Below are positions 19,541 to 31,275 of a stretch of DNA of 64,000 nt, one piece after another. The position numbers and the translations under genes were made by a program. Position 1 is the first letter of the stretch. Each line of letters begins with the position of its first letter. The DNA comes from an uncultured Candidatus Binatia bacterium. GTDB taxonomy: Bacteria; Desulfobacterota; Binatia; UBA9968; JAJDTQ01. Where the stretch lies: NCBI GenBank assembly GCA_964291295.2, contig OZ219754.1:2208001-2272000 (forward strand). The letters run 5' to 3'. Below the pieces are notes generated by a model that had not been told where the DNA came from, did no database searches, and saw only the letters and a list, made by a program, of their open reading frames with translations.

Positions 19541-19614
19541 GGGCCCATAGCTCAGTTGGTTAGAGCCACCGGCTCATAACCGGAAGGTCCCTGGTTCGAG
19601 TCCAGGTGGGCCCA
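19541..19614 (+). tRNA. tRNA with CAT anticodon, probably tRNA-Ile2 (lysidine); CCA not encoded
   Basis: GGGCCCA/TGGGCCC acceptor stem, TAGCTCAGTTGGTTAGAGC D arm, CCGG-CTCATAA-CCGG anticodon arm, GGTTCGAGTCC T arm; position after rpoD matches E. coli ileX. Confidence 0.93.
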
Positions 19615-19794
19615 CTCATTCCTCTCTCGTCCATTCTCTCCCGTCCATCCGTTGGTTCGGACAGGCCTCCGGCACCCTGTGACCACCCGTGCCGTCACGC
19701 ATCAGCGAGGGAGAGGCCTGCCGCCTCGCCCGTGAACGCACCCGCACCGCCGGCGGGGCATTGCCCTGCGGTCTCCCGGCGGGCGGGCGGCGAC

Positions 19795-21254: not shown

Positions 21255-22343
21255 CTACAGGCCGTAGAGCGCCTTGGGATTGTGATACAGGATGTTGTCC
21301 TTCCGTTCCTGGCTGATGGCGTCCATCTTCTTCAGGTCGAGGATGGCGTCCATTTCGCTGGACGGATCCGTGTGGCCGTAGTCGGTGCCGATGACCAGGC
21401 CCCCCTCGCCCGTGAACTTGAGGACGTAGGGGATGTCGTCGTTGGTCTGGCAGGTGACGTAGATGCCGTACCGGGCGAACAGATCCCGGGGAAATTCCCG
21501 CCCGGCCGCCTGGTAGCGGTTCTCGGCCTCCAGGTAGATCCAGGGGACCCACTGGGAGGAGGCTTCGATGAAGCCCCACCGGAGGTCCGGAAAGACCTGG
21601 GGAATCTCGCTTATGATGAGGCCCAGGCATGCGGTGACCGTGGGCGCCCGGAACATGGCGAATCGGCCCGCCGCGGTCGGGCGGTAGGTGTCGCAGTTGG
21701 CAGGATTGCCATTGGCGATGTGCACGGCGATGGACATGTCCAGGTCGCTTGCCGCCTGGTAGACGGGATAGAAGTACGGGTCGGTCATGTCCCGCTCTCC
21801 CTCCAGAGGACGCATGCACACCGCCACCGCGCCATCCTCCCTGGCCTGCCTGATCTGGGACACCGCCTCGTCCAGGGCCAGCACCGGCACCACGCAGGAC
21901 CAGCGCAGCCGGCCCTGGCTCTGCCGGTAGATGTCCCCGAGCCAGCGGTTCCAGCTCCGGCACAGGGCGACTTCCTTGTCCGGCCGGGTGGTGATCTGTT
22001 CGATCCAGAAGGTGTTGTGGAGCACCTGTACGTCCACCCCCAGCCGGTTCATATGGTCGAGCCTGAGCTGGACGTCGTCCAGTTCCCGGGCGGCCCGGGA
22101 CGATTCGACGTTTCTTCCGAACTGGTCCGACAGGTCCCTCAGTTGCTGCTCGCTGTAGGTGGGGAAGCGGAATCCGCGGATCTTCTCGTCGATGACCCAG
22201 TACTGGAGCGTGGGCTCCTGAGGTGACGCGAAAAGCACGGGGCGGTATTTCTCCTCTGACGGCTCCAGATAGTCCCATGTGTGCTCGGTTTCGATCACAT
22301 GGGCATCCGCATCGATGACAGGGACCTGTTCCTGGCTGGACAT
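21255..22343 (-). CDS. Amidohydrolase-2 family protein
   Basis: IDADAHV, YFYPVYQAASDLDMSIAVH, FIEA...WVP, GTDYGHTD, NPKALYGL. Confidence 0.9.
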   Translation of the reverse strand: MSSQEQVPVIDADAHVIETEHTWDYLEPSEEKYRPVLFASPQEPTLQYWVIDEKIRGFRFPTYSEQQLRDLSDQFGRNVESSRAARELDDVQLRLDHMNRLGVDVQVLHNTFWIEQITTRPDKEVALCRSWNRWLGDIYRQSQGRLRWSCVVPVLALDEAVSQIRQAREDGAVAVCMRPLEGERDMTDPYFYPVYQAASDLDMSIAVHIANGNPANCDTYRPTAAGRFAMFRAPTVTACLGLIISEIPQVFPDLRWGFIEASSQWVPWIYLEAENRYQAAGREFPRDLFARYGIYVTCQTNDDIPYVLKFTGEGGLVIGTDYGHTDPSSEMDAILDLKKMDAISQERKDNILYHNPKALYGL

Positions 22344-22570
22344 GGCGCGACTCCTTGATACGCGGCCGGGCATCCCGGATCGCAAGTGCTGTTCCCGGCA
22401 CCCTGTGGCCCGCCGGCGGGCGTGTCACCGTCAAGTTCGACCAACGGCCATCGTTTGTCAACCGTCCAGAGGGTCCCGACCAGGACTATCCCACGCTGAG
22501 TGTTTGTGCGAGGGGGGCGGGTTTGTGTCAGGCACCGGCGTTCTTGCGCTGGGGCAGTCCTACCTGGGGG

Positions 22571-22880
22571 ATGTTGGAACGCATCAGCAAGGGGGCGAGC
22601 GCGATCCATGGTGAGGCACCGGAAGGGTATTCGCTGTCGGAGGTGGAGGTACGTCTGGTGAAGCCGGAGGAGCGTCCGGACTGGGACGTGCTGATGGACA
22701 GGTATCATTATCTGGGCTTTCGCCGTCTGGCAGGCCGCGGCCTTCGTGATGTGGCGACCTTCAGATGCCGTTGGCTGGGCTTGGCGGCGTGGCAGAACGG
22801 CGCCTTCAAGTGCCGATCGCGGGACCGTTGGACGGGCTGGCGGTCGAAGCAGCAGTTCCAGCGTCCGGGTCTGATCGCGA
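22571..22880 (+). pseudogene. Truncated DUF4338-domain transposase-associated fragment (IS remnant)
   Basis: EVRLVKPEERPDWDVLMDRYHYLG...GRGLR.VA....WLGL..W...AFKC..RDRWTGW; homology stops abruptly. Confidence 0.7.
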
Positions 22881-22921
22881 AGCAGCCAAGCTATCGCCGC
22901 CGTTACCCGGCCCTGACCGGC

Positions 22922-22975
22922 GACCGCAGTCGGAGGGTCCCGGCCCCAGACCGCCGTCGGAGGATCCCGGCCCCA
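22922..22975. repeat. 27-bp imperfect tandem duplication
   Basis: GACCGCAGTCGGAGGGTCCCGGCCCCA / GACCGCCGTCGGAGGATCCCGGCCCCA. Confidence 0.75.
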
Positions 22976-22986
22976 ACCACGCCCGC

Positions 22987-23140
22987 AGGCTACCCGACCG
23001 TCCAAACCCATCCCCCGCTCACCCCGCAGGCGATCATCCCTCCACATTACCCCTACACCGACAACCACCAGGAAGGCGCCCAACACCCTTCCGCCCCGCC
23101 CTCATCTCAACACAACCTCCCCGGCATGGGAAAGTCCTGC
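22987..23140 (+). repeat. 154-bp direct repeat, copy 1 (left island boundary)
   Basis: Ungapped alignment with 27081-27234, 8 mismatches by manual count. Confidence 0.95.
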
Positions 23141-23389
23141 CGGGGAACCCGGGGTGGGTTGACGAAGGCCGCGCCAGGTAATATGTGACACGCATGGTGA
23201 CAGGCGTTCGCGGAAGTCCGGATTGCAGAGGTTCAAGACCGGGACGTTGCCGGGATGGTGGCCCGTTTCGCCGATGGCGAGGGAATCGCCGACACTGCCT
23301 GTGCGAGGCTGTCCGGGGCGCTGGGGCAGACGGTTGGAGCGATAGCGGTTTATCGACGATGTACGAGCAATAATGGAACCGGAGAGGCC

Positions 23390-24406
23390 ATGAGCCCCGA
23401 ATTCGAATACCTGGATCGTGAAGTACCACGAGGAACTTTCTTTGATGTCATATTTGCGGTGATCCTTTTTCTGGTTTCCGGGTTCAGCGCATACACGACC
23501 TATCTCGGCTTCTCGAAGGATCTGCCGCTCTACATGAGCCTCCCGATCGCGGCAATCATTGGCTTGGGACTTTTGGGGATCAACTTCAAGATCCGGGAGG
23601 CAAGAATCGCCGATAACCCTCTCGGTTGGTCGTTCCTCGTATTCTCTATCGTCTTCGTGTTCAGTTTCATCAGCAATACCAACGCGTTTTACTCGCGACT
23701 CATCGAGGACGATATCGTGCGGGAAGCGCAGGAAGAAGCGTGGTCTATGTTCGACAGAGAGAGTATGAAGGCGCTCTCGTTGATCGACGATAATCCGCAA
23801 TACCAGAGCGAGCTTGCAACTATCGCGGAGGTAGAAAACGAACTCACCAAGCTCAGGGAACAGATTACCGACCCGCGCAACCTGGGACTCGGGCCGCGTG
23901 CCCAAGCGCACTTGAGACGGATCGAAGAGCTTCTGGAAACCAAATCTACCGATACGGTGCCCCCTTCGCCGGAGCGGCCTGAACGGGAGCACGAGCAATA
24001 CGCAGAGAAGCTTGAGAGACACATTCGAGAGCTTGTCGACGAACGCCAGCGTCGAGGGGACGTCCACAAACATGTGTCCCTCCACGACGATGTCTCACGG
24101 AAAAGGAATGCTCACCAAAAGCGTGTGGATGAGAAAGACTGGCACAGAGGCCATACGGATGAAATGCACCGCGATCTGAAATCCATCGAGAATCAGGTTA
24201 ACCGGCACTTGTCTCCGGTTCCGAAACTGGAGCTCGATGACATCAACGACAAAGCGGACGAAGTTGGAAAATTCAAATACACTTGGCGAAATTTCGTGCA
24301 AGCGGTAAGCCCGGTTGCGATCGCCCTTTCCGTTATATTGGGTGCCCTGCTCGATATCCTGGCCCCGATGATGTCCATCGCATTTTACCGTCCTCAATAC
24401 GATTAG
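23390..24406 (+). CDS. Membrane protein: three N-terminal TM, long helical/coiled-coil domain, C-terminal TM (DUF4407-like architecture)
   Basis: GGAGAGG RBS; hydrophobic segments in about residues 17-100; charged helical middle with GLGPRA; C-terminal VAIALSVILGALLDILAPMMSIAFY. Confidence 0.8.
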   Translation: MSPEFEYLDREVPRGTFFDVIFAVILFLVSGFSAYTTYLGFSKDLPLYMSLPIAAIIGLGLLGINFKIREARIADNPLGWSFLVFSIVFVFSFISNTNAFYSRLIEDDIVREAQEEAWSMFDRESMKALSLIDDNPQYQSELATIAEVENELTKLREQITDPRNLGLGPRAQAHLRRIEELLETKSTDTVPPSPERPEREHEQYAEKLERHIRELVDERQRRGDVHKHVSLHDDVSRKRNAHQKRVDEKDWHRGHTDEMHRDLKSIENQVNRHLSPVPKLELDDINDKADEVGKFKYTWRNFVQAVSPVAIALSVILGALLDILAPMMSIAFYRPQYD

Positions 24407-24418
24407 GAGGTTCATTGG

Positions 24419-25408
24419 ATGCCCGAGACGAATCCTCAGAATGAGCCGATGCCTGTCCCCATCCGGCCGATACGTGTCGACGAAAATGACAGGTTGAACC
24501 CGAATCGTATCGTACCACCTCTCCCGCAGGGCGGGTACTGCCTGTTTACTGCTGGCGTCGTTGGATCTGGAAAGTCCACGCTCCAACACGCTCTGGTTCA
24601 CCGGCTCTACACGGACGAGCGCGTCGATCTCACGTTCAAGAATGAAGACGGAGAAACAAGCCCCAATGGCGAACTCCTGGATTGGATCAACAGATTCGAC
24701 CGTGGCGAATTTCCCGAGCGCACCCCCAAAGGTACACTCCAGACCTTCTTCATCGAATTCGGCCAGAGCGGCCAGAGCCGCCGACCGGTCAAGCTTAGCT
24801 TCGTCGAGATCCCGGGCGAAGACTTTTCGGCCATTCTGCCGCAGAAGGGCCGACCTGATTACGAACCGCGCCTGTCTTCGGAGCTGGAGCACCTTCTGAC
24901 AGCAAAGGATATCAATAAGCTGTTTATCCTGGTAGCTGATACGACTCGGCACGATCCCGCGACGGCCTTGAAGAAGTCGTCGGACGAGCGGGACCAACGT
25001 CTCTACGAAGACATGGTGTTCAGCGAATTGATCACCTATATGCGGGAACTAGGCCTGAATCGAATCAAGCTTCTTTTCGTTGCCGCGAAATGGGATGCTG
25101 CTCCGAACCGTAACCTCGATCCAAAGCGGTTCTTCGGACAGCATTTTCCTCAGGCCAGGTCCGCTCTTCGTCGCTTCGAAAAAGCTCAGGTTCAATACAT
25201 TCGATTCACAGTAGGAAATGTCCGGATCAGTGGAGACGAAACGGAGGGTTTCGCGCGAACCCCAATCGTGGAGAAGCACGATTTCCTACCCATCAGCCGC
25301 GTGATCCAGTGGATCCACACACACGCGACCGAGCGATCCTTGCCGGGCTACCCAACGGTTCGCTTGACGCTTTGGCAAAAGATCAAGCGATGGGCAGCAA
25401 CGACTTGA
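24419..25408 (+). CDS. TRAFAC-class P-loop GTPase (conflict-system type)
   Basis: AGGAGG RBS; G1 GVVGSGKST, G2-like FPERT, G3 variant EIPGE, G4 AKWD. Confidence 0.85.
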   Translation: MPETNPQNEPMPVPIRPIRVDENDRLNPNRIVPPLPQGGYCLFTAGVVGSGKSTLQHALVHRLYTDERVDLTFKNEDGETSPNGELLDWINRFDRGEFPERTPKGTLQTFFIEFGQSGQSRRPVKLSFVEIPGEDFSAILPQKGRPDYEPRLSSELEHLLTAKDINKLFILVADTTRHDPATALKKSSDERDQRLYEDMVFSELITYMRELGLNRIKLLFVAAKWDAAPNRNLDPKRFFGQHFPQARSALRRFEKAQVQYIRFTVGNVRISGDETEGFARTPIVEKHDFLPISRVIQWIHTHATERSLPGYPTVRLTLWQKIKRWAATT

Positions 25409-26286
25409 AGTCTCCGGCCCTTTTTGTCTGCGGCACGCCTAGCGATCGATACGGATTCGAGTGCAGAACGCTCGACGGACCGCAGGTTCCAGATGGGTTT
25501 GCCAGATACTTGGACGACATCCCGGCTGAGAAATTTCCCAAGCGAGGAGATGCGACGCATTTCTTCTTTCGCGACAAGGATGAGGGCTGGGCGATGTACG
25601 CCGAGTATCGCTCAATCCATCCCAACGACGCAGATCACAACCGTGGCGCATTCATCGCCGTGGGCTGCTGGTCGAATGCGGCACTCACGCCCGATCAGGC
25701 GATGGAAGCCCTGTTCCGTATCGAGGACGTCCACCGCGATCTTGCGGAGAGGCGCGACCCGGACACCGATTCGTTCTCCCCCGACTTTCAATTGCCTGAA
25801 TACGCGGCACCCAACCTTGTAGTGCTGGATCGTGACCAGGTCGATCGGTCCCGGTTGGCTGATCTGTTTTGTCAGGCCGCAGCGGGCCGAGGGACATACA
25901 GCGGCCAATCCGGATCGGTGACCCTTACGTCCAAAGAGGTTGGCCAAGGCTTGCTCGCGCAGTTCTGCGCGCCGCCACCGGAGGCGGAACCTGCTCCTCC
26001 CGACCCGGGAAGCTGGCAAACGCGCTTGGATGAGGTGATACGGTACGGTATGGACGAATCACTGCAGACACGCCAAGCGCTCCGGAAACTGTCGAAGCTG
26101 GAAGACCAGCGTGCGAAGGTGCTCAAGTCCTTGACCCGGAGTTCGCGACGCGCTTCCGGGGCCGGAACGCGCCGGGGCGCCAGTACTGGGCCGCACATGA
26201 CGATCCGGGAGATTATCTTTTTCTCCCTCTGCGCGACGATTTGGACAGCAGTTGCAGTTGTATTGACAGTGATCTTCGCCACATGA
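25390..26286 (+). CDS. Uncharacterised GTPase-associated protein with C-terminal membrane anchor
   Basis: Overlaps the GTPase stop; N-terminal alpha/beta domain (LFVCGTP...YAEYRSIHP...RGAFIAVG), Pro-rich linker, short coiled coil, C-terminal TM IIFFSLCATIWTAVAVVLTVIF. Confidence 0.75.
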   Translation: MGSNDLKSPALFVCGTPSDRYGFECRTLDGPQVPDGFARYLDDIPAEKFPKRGDATHFFFRDKDEGWAMYAEYRSIHPNDADHNRGAFIAVGCWSNAALTPDQAMEALFRIEDVHRDLAERRDPDTDSFSPDFQLPEYAAPNLVVLDRDQVDRSRLADLFCQAAAGRGTYSGQSGSVTLTSKEVGQGLLAQFCAPPPEAEPAPPDPGSWQTRLDEVIRYGMDESLQTRQALRKLSKLEDQRAKVLKSLTRSSRRASGAGTRRGASTGPHMTIREIIFFSLCATIWTAVAVVLTVIFAT

Positions 26287-26632
26287 TTGTCAAGTGGCGC
26301 CGGAAAATCGGGCAGATTTCCAACTCGACTTTGTGCATTACGAGGCGAAGAAAAGCGCGTAATGCATACGCCTTGAGCGGGAAATCGAGCCGTCGCGGGG
26401 CAGGGCACCCGAACCGCCAGCCCGCGGCAAGCCCATGGAGATGGACATGGGGCTCTGATTATGGCGCGATCCGTCTTCCGATATCTGCGCAACATCGCCC
26501 GGCATTCCTGGTAGCGGCTGCCACTGGAGCCAAGTGATGATGCCAGGAGCAGTTCCGGACGATACATCCCTGCCGCGGCGTGCGGCCATGAATGCCGGGA
26601 ATGCGCGATGCTGGAACTGCCGTTGAAGATGA

Positions 26633-27042
26633 TTACTGAAACAGCCAGGAGCCGATCGCACACCACGACATGGCAGTCAACACGAAGGCCGCCCAGTTCG
26701 AGAACAGGTCTGCACCCCTTCGAACAAGCCGGAAATCATTCCAGTTGATCTTCTCCCGTTGATCTTCAAGTATGAAACCCGGGCTCCGTGCACTTTAAGC
26801 TCCTCCTCCATCTTCCCATCGTCCTGCAGGTGAAAGTATCTCAGGACGTACCAATCGACATGGGCGAGAACCACCGTTACGCCGAGAACGATCATGCCCC
26901 ATTCATCCGACGGTCTTATGCCGAAGATCTCGAGATTCTTCGGATCGGCGCTTGCCGCTGCGGCTACGACCACAACACCCGCAAGCGCCAGAGTGTTGCA
27001 CCGGCTGGCTCTCCCAGCTTCTCGGTGGTATTGACCGCGCAC
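26633..27042 (-). pseudogene. Small membrane protein disrupted by a 14-nt tandem duplication
   Basis: NTLALAGVVVVAAA...IVLGVTVVLAHV.WYVLRY in one frame, ADLFSNWAAFVLTAMSWCAIGSWLFQ* in another; junction TCCAGTTGATCTTC/TCCCGTTGATCTTC at 26740-26767. Confidence 0.6.
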
Positions 27043-27080
27043 TTCCGATCCTGCGGTGGGTACACGTACTCCAGGCCGAG

Positions 27081-27234
27081 AGGCTACCCGACCGCCCAAA
27101 CCCATCCCCCGCTCGCCCCGCCGGCGATCATCCCTCCACATTACCCCTACACCGACAACCACCAGGAAGGCGCCCAACACCCTTCCGCCCCGCCTTCATC
27201 TCAACACAACATTCCCGGCATGGAATAGTCCTGC
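27081..27234 (+). repeat. 154-bp direct repeat, copy 2 (right island boundary)
   Basis: Matches 22987-23140. Confidence 0.95.
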
Positions 27235-27339
27235 GGTCCCGACCTTCCGCGGCCTTGCCACCCGCCGCGGTCCCCCCGTCCGTCCCGGAAACCGCCGCGC
27301 GGTCCGGCGCGTTCGCTCTTTCCACCCCGGCACCCCCGC

Positions 27340-28218
27340 TCAGGCCAAGGCCGCGACCCAACACAGCGCCACCACCGCGGCCGCCGCCAGACCGGTCCGG
27401 GTCTGGACGCGGATGCTCTCCGGGCGGTCCATGGTCCGTGCCAGCAGGGCACCGGAGACGCCGCCGGCGGCGAATCCCCAGAGATGGGCCCAGATGTCCA
27501 CCCGCGGTCCTCCGGTGCCGAACATGGCGAGGACCGCCAGGCCGGCCGCCACCGGCACCCAGGCCAGCTTGCCCCGCAGGCCGCGCCGCTGCCGCCGGAC
27601 CACTCCCGTGCCGCCGAGAACGCCCAGGGCGCCGAAGACCGCGGTGGACGCGCCGATGGAAACATGGTCGAAGCCGTGAAACCAGGCGTTGCACAGATTT
27701 CCCAGTGCGCCCGCGCCCAGCACCAGGGCCGTGCCGACTCCGGGCCCTTCGGCCCGGCAGACCGCGGTGAGAAAGAACAGCAGGGCGACGGCATTGGCGC
27801 CCACGTGGGCCAGGTCGGCGTGCAGGGTGAGGGCGGTGACCGTGCGCCACAGCTCGCCGCCAAGGATCAGGTCGGCGGATGCGCTGCCGCGCTCGATCCA
27901 GGGCACCGACCCTTGGGTCCATGCGGCAAGGGAGAAAAAGGCCAGCAGCCCCGCGGCCACTGCCGCACCGGTGTAGAGGGGTGCCTGGCCGGGCCAGGGC
28001 TGTTCCTGCGGTATCGGGGTCCGGCTCTCGTTTTCGTAGTCCCAGAGTTCGGTGACCGCCTGTTCCAGGTGTCGGGAAGGGACCGACAGGACCCAGCCGC
28101 TGGAGGTGTGCGCCAGACGCGGAGCCAGCCCTTCCGCCTCAAGCACCAGCGCCCATTCCTCGATCTGGCGCAGGTCCGACGTCCTGCGTACGATGATTTC
28201 CCGTTGTGACTGTATCAT
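27340..28218 (-). CDS. Rhomboid family intramembrane serine protease
   Basis: WRTVTALTLHADLAHVGAN, GASTAVFG catalytic Ser, AHLWG catalytic His. Confidence 0.92.
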   Translation of the reverse strand: MIQSQREIIVRRTSDLRQIEEWALVLEAEGLAPRLAHTSSGWVLSVPSRHLEQAVTELWDYENESRTPIPQEQPWPGQAPLYTGAAVAAGLLAFFSLAAWTQGSVPWIERGSASADLILGGELWRTVTALTLHADLAHVGANAVALLFFLTAVCRAEGPGVGTALVLGAGALGNLCNAWFHGFDHVSIGASTAVFGALGVLGGTGVVRRQRRGLRGKLAWVPVAAGLAVLAMFGTGGPRVDIWAHLWGFAAGGVSGALLARTMDRPESIRVQTRTGLAAAAVVALCWVAALA

Positions 28219-29167: not shown

Positions 29168-30016
29168 TCAATCCAGGACGAGCGGCGTGTCGTCGCGGTT
29201 GGCCCACTCGCCCATGGAGCCATCGTAGTTGCGCGCCCGCTCGTAACCCAGCAGCTTCAGGACGAAGACTCCGTGCGCCGCACGGATGCCGCCCTGTCAA
29301 TAGGTGACCACTTCCCGGTCAGGTGGCACCCCCGCCCGTTCCAGCAGGCTCCGCAGCTCCCCGGCCTCCTTCAGGGTCTTGTAGGGGTTTTCCTGGAGAA
29401 AGTTGAGCCATTCCAGGTGCACCGCTCCCGGCAGGTGGCCCGCCCGCCGGTTGCCGCGGTCGTTGGCCCCGGTCCACTCGCCGTCCGACCGCACGTCCAG
29501 GTAGACCAGGTCCGGATTGCCGAGGTTGGCCTTGCCGTAGTCCAGCGTGCACACCAGATCGGGGTTCGTCCTGGGGTTGAAGAGCGCGCCCCGGGGTTCG
29601 GGCACGTCCAGGGTCGTGGGCCGCCCTTCATGGAACCACTTGCGCCAGCCGCCGTTGAGCACGGTCACGTCGGTGTGGCCGTAGTAGTTCAGCACCCACC
29701 ACAGGCGGGCGGCCCACAGGGAGCCGTTGCTGTCGTAGGCCACCACCCGCGTGCCCGCGCCGATGCCCAGACTCTCCATCACCTCCCTGGCGGTGTCCGG
29801 GGGCGCCACCCGCGGATACCGGTGGGGGTCTCGGGCGAATTCCGGCTGCTTGATGTAGTGGTGCACGCGCATGCCCACGGCGCCCTTGATGTGGGCGCGT
29901 CGGTAGGCGTCGAAGGGGTCGCAGTCGACGATCCGAAGGCCGGGGTCGTCGAGGTGCCGTTCCAGCCAGTCCGTCTCCGCCAGCAGTTCCGGGCGTGCGT
30001 AGCCTTCCTGTGTCAT
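29168..30016 (-). CDS. Selenocysteine-containing tandem-domain rhodanese/sulfurtransferase
   Basis: In-frame TGA (29297-29299) in VVTY-U-QGGIRAA at the catalytic Cys position; reading continues to the rhodanese signature RNYDGSMGEW and a stop at 29168. Confidence 0.9.
29270..29286 (-). promoter_or_regulatory. Bacterial SECIS-like hairpin of the sulfurtransferase
   Basis: UCCGUGC-GGC-GCACGGA; apical loop starts with G, 17 nt after UGA. Confidence 0.75.
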
Positions 30017-30198
30017 CCGTATTCCTCCCGGTGGCGCCGGTCCGGCGCATGGCGCTCCCCCGACGGGAGGGCCGCAGGGAACCGGGCCAGCGTGTCGCAT
30101 CTGTACCAGATGACGCGACGGCGCGCGAGGACGAGGGCATTCGGGTTGAACTGTCGCGCATCCTGGGCGAGAATGGCATCCGTTCGTATTTCGGGGGT

Positions 30199-31275
30199 AT
30201 GCCGATGTCCATGTTCATTGATGCCGACGCTCACGTGATCGAGACCGAGCAGACTTGGGAGTTCATGGAGGAAGGGGACCGGCGGTTCGCGCCGGACCTG
30301 CTGGTCTCCCGGCGCAGCGGCCTGCAGTACTGGCGCATCGACGAGCGGGTGGTGCCCAACACCAACATCGGCCTCAACACCACCGCCGGGTCGCGTGAGC
30401 TCGCCGACGTGCGGGCGCGGATCGCGCACATGGACGCGTTGTCGGTGGACGTCCAGGTCATCTATCCGACGCTGTTCCTGCGCCCCCTGACGGCCCGGGC
30501 CGACGTGGAACGGGCACTCTGCCGGGGTTACAACCGCTGGCTTGCGGAGATCTGGAAGCAGGGGGGCGGGCGCATCCGCTGGGTGGTGCTGGCGCCGGCG
30601 CGGTCCATGGACCGCGCCATCGAGGAGATCCGTTTCGGCAAGGCCCACGGCGCCTGCGGCGTCTTCATGCACGGCTTCGAGGGGGACCGGCTGCTCTCGG
30701 ACGACACCTTCTTCCCCCTCTACCAGGAGGCCAGTGATCTCGACATGCCCATCTGCATCCACGCCGGCGGCGGCAACCTGGATCACTACGACCTGTTCGC
30801 CCAGGACGTGTTCTCGCGCTTCAAGCTCCCGGCGGTGGGAGCGTTCAACAATCTCATCTACAAGGGCGTCCCCGACATGTTCCCGGAGCTTCGCTGGTGC
30901 TTCGTGGAGACCACGTCCCAGTGGGTTCCCTATGCGTTGAACGACCTTCGGATCCGCACGACCGCCGAACTGGCCTTTCGCCGGAAGCACGCCGGCAGCA
31001 GCCTGGCCGGGGTGCGCGGTGCCCCCCGGGAGCTTGCCGACGGGAACCTGCTGAGGGACAACCGCATCTACGTGGCCTGTCAGACCACCGATGACCTGCC
31101 CTATGTGATCGAGCACGCCGGCGAGGACAACATCATCGTGGGAACCGACTACGGGCACGCCGACTACTCCAACGACATGGAGGCCATCGCCAGGCTGGCC
31201 GGCGAGGGCATGCTTCCCGAAGGCTTGGGAACCAGGATCCTGAGTGACAACCCCCGGCGTCTCTACGGCCTGTAG
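30199..31275 (+). CDS. Amidohydrolase-2 family protein
   Basis: IDADAHVIE, FFPLYQEASDLDMPICIH, GTDYGHAD, NPRRLYGL. Confidence 0.9.
   Translation: MPMSMFIDADAHVIETEQTWEFMEEGDRRFAPDLLVSRRSGLQYWRIDERVVPNTNIGLNTTAGSRELADVRARIAHMDALSVDVQVIYPTLFLRPLTARADVERALCRGYNRWLAEIWKQGGGRIRWVVLAPARSMDRAIEEIRFGKAHGACGVFMHGFEGDRLLSDDTFFPLYQEASDLDMPICIHAGGGNLDHYDLFAQDVFSRFKLPAVGAFNNLIYKGVPDMFPELRWCFVETTSQWVPYALNDLRIRTTAELAFRRKHAGSSLAGVRGAPRELADGNLLRDNRIYVACQTTDDLPYVIEHAGEDNIIVGTDYGHADYSNDMEAIARLAGEGMLPEGLGTRILSDNPRRLYGL

Follow-up and report, generated by a model that had tools for sequence, protein, structure and literature searches.

What is a three-gene GTPase locus without a recognisable enzymatic effector doing in a bacterial genome, and does it belong to a known kind of system? 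The question is raised by the genes g1, g2 and g3 of an uncultured Candidatus Binatia bacterium, which lie within a stretch of 64,000 nucleotides (nt) (contig OZ219754.1 of assembly GCA_964291295.2, positions 2,208,001 to 2,272,000 of the forward strand; hereafter the window, meaning the whole of the DNA analysed) and which a sequence-only reading had singled out as a candidate membrane-anchored GTPase system. Our analysis indicates that the trio probably represents a hitherto undescribed form of a predicted system of bacterial defence. On balance we lean, by a little, towards a self-contained, mobile, three-component membrane GTPase module, a compact form of the conflict (defence) systems built on DO-GTPases; the defence or anti-phage role itself we infer from context only. 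New are the fixed partners and the fold assignment of g3, and already known is the GTPase family.

The three genes had been described as co-oriented, with a short gap followed by an overlap and a lower G+C content than their flanks, and both descriptions held. The open reading frame (ORF) coordinates (Table 1) place g2 just past the stop of g1 and give g3 an overlap of 19 nt with the end of g2, and the junctions are likewise tight or overlapping across the linked loci described below. The G+C content is 0.52-0.61 across positions 23500-26999 versus 0.66-0.73 in most flanking bins. Promoter and terminator scans of the region gave results at chance level only.

The product of g2 is soluble by hydropathy, with no hydrophobic stretch, and matched the DO-GTPase1 profile PF19975 over positions 3-215 of its 271, with E 7.4e-10 and a score of 39 bits where the cut-off is 27; the DO-GTPase2 profile remained below its own cut-off. 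According to passages of Kaur et al. (2020, PMC7159879), what defines this family of TRAFAC GTPases is a Glu conserved in Walker B, and the g2 protein has this residue, so that its earlier assignment to the GTPase family of the Aravind group is supported. The motifs picked out from the letters of the sequence, G1 GVVGSGKST, G2-like PERT, G3 EIPGE and G4 AKWD, are all present and are kept in 17, 15, 17 and 17 of 17 linked homologues, the second of them as a switch-I-like P-x-R-T (FPERT in g2). In the alignment, G133 and E134 of FVEIPGE are invariant and E130 nearly so, and D226 of AKWD is invariant with K224 and W225 nearly invariant. The view of the locus as a single-GTPase variant also stands: a six-frame PF19975 search of the genome returned g2 as its sole DO-GTPase, no second GTPase was found in any of 16 linked loci, and g2 has no zinc ribbon, its N-terminus being without Cys pairs. 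As reported in the same source (PMC7159879), a second paralogous GTPase occurs in 38% of DO-GTPase systems and an N-terminal zinc ribbon in 60%, which makes both frequent, not obligatory. Searches of g2 against PDB sequence profiles gave generic P-loop matches only.

An exhaustive search of 1.84 billion representatives retrieved 130 relatives of g2 at E <= 0.001, of which 13 reached E <= 1e-30. Among 129 representative relatives, 78 matched PF19975 at E <= 1e-4, and fusions to TIR, nSTAND-LRR, Schlafen/AlbA_2 plus HATPase_c_4, or PKD domains occur in some; by their domain content the TIR, nSTAND-LRR and Schlafen-type fusions are typical of conflict systems. Distant relatives with such fusions are P0188, P0201, P0196, P0186, P0123, P0211 and P0222. 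In a FastTree phylogeny of 130 GTPases, all 16 linked ones fell inside one 33-row clade (Shimodaira-Hasegawa-like support 91, a local support only), separate from the canonical DO-GTPase1/2 pair, whose rows sit on long branches, and from two zinc-ribbon GTPases (ZnR-GTPases) of GAP1-N2 systems. The same tree also contains large clades of DO-GTPase1-like proteins.

The linkage of the three genes is conserved. Twenty-three related loci were assembled, L009 (a Gammaproteobacteria metagenome-assembled genome) and L010 (labelled Alphaproteobacteria) from a genome scan and 21 from a metagenome scan with a g1 alignment, the near-identical L012 and L013 being counted once. Profile searches of all ORFs revealed g1-g2-g3 in this order and on one strand in 15 of the 23, and g2-g3 at the start of the contig in one more; the remaining seven end inside g1 or g2, and no contig runs on without the partner. 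The neighbourhood survey that the sequence-only reading had proposed thus returned the same order in every locus whose contig reaches far enough. The G+C content of the linked loci ranges from 0.38 to 0.67. DNA homology of the window to L009 and L010 is limited to positions 23370-26016, and therefore the three genes travel as a unit. When the flanking ORFs of 16 loci were compared all against all, no gene was shared except between the near-copy pair and for a DruA-like fragment common to the window and L010. In a search of 40 relatives, 24 from the same genus and 16 from the same order, the g2 GTPase was not found in any, and the DO-GTPase1 family was seen in four of 401 genomes of the phylum. 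From these comparisons, together with a variable insertion site, the module is horizontally mobile and accessory.

The product of g3 consists of an N-domain, a Pro-rich linker, a coiled-coil region, a basic stretch and a C-terminal transmembrane (TM) segment. Of this layout, proposed in the main from the letters, the alpha/beta N-domain is supported by a confident AlphaFold2 model and the TM segment by hydropathy. One C-terminal TM segment is present in 45 of 47 family members, after a variable coiled-coil and low-complexity part; the subgroup of the window protein ends 1-28 residues past it, and the tails of other members measure at least 48 residues. The N-domain (about 185 residues) is marked by the family motifs FFvCGTPSD..GFE, LPG.P..YLD and NPNDxxxNRGA and by the invariant residues G22, P34, L41, P78, D80, R85 and G86. 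Relatives comprise 13 close clusters from a word-indexed search and 38 longer ones from an N-domain profile (all at E <= 1e-34), two overlapping sets in which none is named or has a Pfam domain. Neither did g3 itself match a Pfam family at E up to 10, any family in NCBIfam, PADLOC or PHROGs, or any PDB sequence profile, GAP1-N2 giving no PDB profile match either.

The AlphaFold2 model of residues 1-188 reached a pLDDT (predicted local distance difference test) of 82.5 and a pTM (predicted template modelling score) of 0.84. DSSP assigned E10-18, E22-27, H37-42, E55-62, E67-75, E88-95, H101-120 and H150-165. Longin domains have a five-stranded sheet with the order beta-beta-alpha-beta-beta-beta-alpha-alpha, and the model has this same order of strands and helices. 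The best Foldseek match in the PDB was TagF (E 4.2e-4, probability 0.98); further rows included TagF of P. aeruginosa, the Lst4 longin domain, FLCN-FNIP2, DENND1B and SEDL, and the longin domains of VAMP7, Sec22 and Ykt6 were also among the fold matches. A fold search of BFVD gave no match at E <= 0.001. On the basis of the model, the N-domain is predicted to be longin-like.

Longin folds serve as GTPase platforms in MglB, FLCN/FNIP, DENN, Mon1-Ccz1 and SR-alpha. Compared with the longin/roadblock platforms (MglB-MglA; FLCN-FNIP/Rag and GATOR1/Rag; DENN/Rab and Mon1-Ccz1/Rab; SRX/SR-beta), g3 shares the predicted N-domain fold, the order of elements and the genetic pairing with a P-loop GTPase; it differs in having no sequence similarity to them and in that its partner belongs to the DO-GTPase family and is not Ras-like. 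The R-SNAREs combine a longin domain, a coiled-coil segment and a C-terminal membrane anchor, and g3 has its parts in the same order as the longin R-SNAREs VAMP7, Sec22 and Ykt6, a likeness that is an analogy of architecture only. Passages of two papers likewise describe longin and roadblock domains as platforms for GTPases (PMC3747258; PMC3521125). The text of Kaur et al. (PMC7159879) does not contain the words longin, roadblock, DENN or TagF. TagF itself (PDB 9t0n, 6iz8 and 2qnu) is 11-15% identical to g3, which has no Pfam TagF match, no type VI secretion genes nearby and, in addition, a coiled coil and a TM anchor. With neither a Pfam family match nor a type VI secretion context, g3 was not accepted as a member of the TagF family.

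The third component, g1, had been predicted to be a membrane protein with three TM segments, a long helical domain and one further TM segment. Hydropathy bore this out, with four hydrophobic stretches at about residues 17-40, 46-67, 79-100 and 303-331 that correspond to three N-terminal TM segments and, past some 200 charged helix-type residues (the helical domain), one C-terminal TM segment. Its homologues form 82 clusters, none of them named. Alignment revealed the motifs FSFISNTNAFY in TM3 and LLDILAP in TM4, with invariant polar residues S92, S95, N96, T97 and N98 in the former and D322 and P326 in the latter, and the motifs QITDPxNPGLG and GxFxYTWxNF in the helical domain. Among the loops, that between TM2 and TM3 alone is clearly basic (on average 3.6 K/R versus 1.4 D/E). 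No family in Pfam, NCBIfam, PADLOC or PHROGs and no PDB sequence profile was matched by g1. DUF4407 (PF14362), a profile suggested for comparison, found no counterpart: none of 27 g1 relatives matched it at E <= 1, no frame of the genome did, and its hidden Markov model (HMM) exceeded the cut-off in none of 61 genomes and in one of 401 (a weak match). The nearest ESM Atlas clusters (score 0.96) are automatically named 'DUF4407 domain-containing', yet as a rule do not have that Pfam family themselves. The likeness to DUF4407 proteins therefore lies in the architecture seen by the sequence-only reading and in these language-model look-alikes, and the difference in the lack of a PF14362 match.

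How the trio relates to the DO-GTPase/GAP1 systems can be judged from the passages of Kaur et al. (2020, PMC7159879) that describe them. Common to both are a TRAFAC GTPase, drawn from one family and with Glu in its Walker B, a partner encoded directly downstream, an association with the membrane and mobile, sporadic neighbourhoods. In those systems, GASH goes with GAP1-N1 and an FNIII-repeat protein with GAP1-N2, plus variable effectors. The trio, by contrast, has a single GTPase without a zinc ribbon, a partner without detectable GAP1-N, -M or -C, neither a GASH or FNIII protein nor a variable enzymatic effector, and a fixed upstream helical protein of 3+1 TM segments instead. The canonical locus used for comparison, L037, reads PNP-EAD1, GASH, DO-GTPase2, DO-GTPase1, GAP1-N1..EAD1. 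Two compact alphaproteobacterial operons (L038, 4884-8395, + strand; L039, 6307-10222, - strand) encode a coiled-coil protein, an FGE-sulfatase-like protein, a ZnR-GTPase and a short GAP1-N2, and have no TM segment. Within one family (f4), 10 of the 13 genomes also had GAP1-N2. A literature search found no described system of this make-up, although the source-data tables of Kaur et al. could list the arrangement; in two supplementary files of that paper the terms DUF4407, DO-GTPase and GAP1-N2 are not present. In the literature passages that use the term DO-GTPase, no experiments on such systems are reported.

The context that points to defence is provided by the neighbours of the module. Of the eight loci whose flanks extend over 4 kb or more, five have defence-type genes within 5 kb, as a raw count. 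At L009, a C-terminal fragment of HamB (E 3e-54) lies directly upstream, accompanied by a type I methyltransferase (E 1e-256) and PDC-M21C; L018 has a C-terminal fragment of pAgo (E 7e-92) and PD-Lambda-3_B (E 1e-75), L023 has AbiEi/AbiEii, a transposase and an RHS protein, L016 an SNase-type C3a212, and L013 a TIR-TPR protein. Two of these adjoining genes are shortened, the piece of HamB (Hachiman helicase) at L009 3979-4644 and the piece of pAgo at L018 8337-8927, and they look like parts of eroding defence islands. No enzymatic effector was detected among g1-g3 by Pfam or as a conserved neighbour at the 16 loci, in agreement with the earlier statement that the module has no recognisable nuclease or other effector enzyme. 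A check for an already known system was negative as well: no PADLOC-DB 2.0.0 system model was matched by g1 or g3, and g2 gave only mad8 at E 0.048.

For such a module we propose that g2 would be a cytoplasmic GTP switch and that the C-terminal helix of g3 would fix this protein in the inner membrane, with the longin-like domain facing the cytoplasm. By analogy with longin platforms, this domain may bind g2 and either control which nucleotide it holds or keep it at the membrane. The longin domains of FLCN and Nprl2 contain catalytic arginines, and the loop with the invariant Arg85-Gly86 of g3 could by the same analogy be a catalytic or contact element, a candidate arginine finger. With its conserved polar residues inside TM helices, g1 may be a membrane-embedded output or co-sensor. 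Because no enzyme is present, the output would act on the membrane itself, possibly by permeabilisation or depolarisation (abortive infection) or by a block of entry, and the system might act against phages or other elements at the membrane. Mean pairwise identities of 49% for g1, the most conserved of the trio, 44% for g2 and 34% for g3 fit a fast-evolving sensor or adaptor with a conserved output. Stated in full, that a dedicated immune or conflict module uses a tail-anchored longin protein to control its DO-family TRAFAC GTPase at the membrane and so gates a polytopic partner, the scheme is tentative, and we would sooner expect it to fail in some part than to hold.

Might the locus instead be a divergent but ordinary GAP1-N2-type DO-GTPase system, in which g3 is a shortened and drifted GAP1 and g1 a variable TM component of the sort noted by Kaur et al.? 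As with GAP1, g3 lies directly downstream of the GTPase, and its anchor recalls the fusion to C-terminal TM segments that is often seen in GAP1 of N2-type systems, as passages of PMC7159879 report. All Pfam-bearing ESM Atlas neighbours of g3(1-195) are GAP1-N1/N2 proteins (scores 0.81-0.87), and by eye the GAP1 motif FTSxPSxxGxGYR resembles CGTPSDxxGFE of g3, one hhalign segment pairing the two at the same position. Atlas scores below 0.9 were, however, taken as leads only, and the profile searches gave nothing significant. The GAP1-N1/N2 HMMs (PF20012, PF20013) matched neither g3 nor its 13 + 6 relatives at E up to 10 or 1, a six-frame PF20013 search of the genome found no match, and the N-domain profile matches gave no bridge to GAP1. 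Comparison by hhalign of 60 g3 N-domains with 12 GAP1-N2 domains yielded E 0.56 (probability 0.1%), and further runs against GAP1 single sequences or profiles E 0.33, 0.087 and 0.8. No Pfam domain of the GASH, FNIII, GAP1-M or GAP1-C type was detected in g1, g2 or g3 or in a conserved neighbour at the linked loci, the GTPase has no zinc ribbon, and the linked GTPases form their own clade. Only the language-model look-alikes and the likeness by eye point to the GAP1-type partner anticipated by the sequence-only reading; g3 was not accepted as a GAP1-N1/N2 protein, and we regard the ordinary GAP1-N2-type system as unlikely. A GAP1 protein searched against the plasmid collection gave no match.

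Of the trio, g1 and g3 are membrane proteins in which long helical or coiled-coil parts occur, and the module has no nuclease or other killing enzyme, features that would also suit a membrane-stress or remodelling module whose GTPase organises these two proteins for repair or reshaping of the inner membrane. Against such a function stand the sporadic distribution, with none of the 40 relatives and only the four phylum genomes noted above, the low-GC insertion at a variable site, the frequency of defence neighbours and the lack of adjoining psp or envelope-stress genes in any of the 16 loci, so that we find it distinctly improbable. Cargo of a mobile element, or a device of inter-bacterial or host competition such as an addiction-like or exclusion module, is suggested by transposase genes or fragments near the module in L009, L010 and L023, by a DruA/DUF4338-like fragment beside it in the window and a similar one in L010, and by the best fold match being TagF, a type VI secretion regulator. 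Yet the module moves without a conserved mobility gene, has no adjacent type VI secretion genes and was not found on plasmids or phages, and this explanation appears very unlikely.

Several observations nevertheless weigh against a compact DO-GTPase defence module. Three of the eight well-flanked loci (L010, L011 and L019) have no defence gene beside it, and the window itself has no recognised intact one; the module was not found in plasmid or phage collections (g1 searches) or in IMG/VR. Since g3 is not detectably GAP1, the label 'DO-GTPase/GAP1-type' is carried by g2 and gene position only. By the positive-inside rule, the helical domain of g1 would lie, with low confidence, outside the cytoplasm, and therefore a sensor role would be favoured over an effector role.

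If the compact DO-GTPase module is accepted, its enzyme-free three-gene form offers the simplest handle on what the DO-GTPase switch does, and the g1 and g3 protein families are described here for the first time. The longin-like fold provides a concrete hypothesis, namely that g3 is a regulator or membrane tether of the GTPase, and bears on the debated origin of eukaryotic longin-type GTPase regulators and of longin-SNARE-like architectures. Should the trio defend its host, it would do so without an enzyme, pointing to a mechanism at the level of the membrane. Should GAP1-N domains share the longin fold, longin-type GTPase platforms would be native to and widespread in bacterial immunity, beyond roadblock/MglB, and g1-g2-g3 would be the minimal enzyme-free form of such systems.

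Table 1. Positions in the window of the three genes, their motifs and domains, and the island that holds them
Feature	Positions	Strand	Remarks
g1	23390-24406	+	338 residues; ORF 23255-24406; ATG at 23390 preceded by GGAGAGG
g2	24419-25408	+	329 residues; starts 12 nt past g1 stop; GGAGG 8 nt upstream
g2 G1/Walker A GVVGSGKS, residues 46-53	24554-24577	+	G46, G51, K52 invariant; in 17/17 linked homologues
g2 G3/Walker B with Glu, FVEIPGE, residues 128-134	24800-24820	+	in 17/17 linked homologues
g2 G4 AKWD, residues 223-226	25085-25096	+	KWD in 17/17 linked homologues
g3	25390-26286	+	298 residues; ORF 25309-26286; ATG at 25390 is the start common to homologues
g3 N-terminal domain, residues 1-188	25390-25953	+	predicted longin-like alpha/beta fold (AlphaFold2)
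g3 C-terminal TM anchor, residues ~272-298	26203-26283	+	hydropathy; basic stretch precedes
Strain-specific low-GC segment, ~4.9 kb	22465-27354	.	between amidohydrolase gene and rhomboid-family gene; homology to relatives interrupted
Direct repeat, left copy, 164 nt	22977-23140	+	member of dispersed host repeat family
Direct repeat, right copy, 164 nt	27071-27234	+	93-95% identical to left copy

In the window, the module is neighboured by an amidohydrolase, a rhomboid and an EamA-type gene. Against five genomes of the genus, homology ends at 22464 (22382 in G023) and restarts at 27355-27357, and therefore about 4.9 kb is specific to this genome and the site is a variable one. The spacing between amidohydrolase and rhomboid genes is about 135 bp in G023 and 0.95-1.8 kb in the other four, so that this intergenic site (22383-27356) varies from 135 bp to 1.8 kb across G023, G010, G005, G022 and G014. 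Two paralogous amidohydrolase-type genes flank the region (21255-22385, - strand; 29995-31275, + strand), and the left one, with 20-47 matches in each of the five related genomes, belongs to a large paralogue family. The sole tRNA gene in the window, a tRNA-Met (CAT) at 19541-19615 (+ strand), stands apart from the island, 3 kb to its left.

The description of the island as repeat-bounded held, though with one qualification. Direct repeats of 164 nt do bracket the genes, but they belong to a C-rich host family that is dispersed over this 3.7-Mb genome (13 matches, 76-100% alike) and is not specific to the system. The bracketing copies are the most similar pair of that family, which matched no Rfam family and whose folding was not above that of shuffles (z = 0.06). 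Being dispersed in the genome and not present at the related loci L009 and L010, the repeat is a feature of the host genome and not a part of the system. At the left edge of the island, a shortened DruA/DUF4338-like ORF (22355-23185, + strand) matched PF14236 at E 5.6e-7 over profile positions 33-124 of 297. Further repeat copies (L003, L006 and L007) are accompanied by pieces related to it, and the DruA-like fragment upstream of the system in L010 (1414-2190) is 54% identical to it over 68 residues.

Assembled contigs over the region in runs X1 and X2 contain the island, some of them with an identical sequence. In run X3 the flanks are covered at high depth (about 95% alike), the island interior is uncovered and no reliable contig spans the gap, a pattern that is no evidence of an empty site. 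X1 and X2 also contain g1/g2/g3 contigs with many differences, 90-95% alike to window positions 23420-25660, suggesting that a different strain or organism sampled in that study has a related copy of its own.

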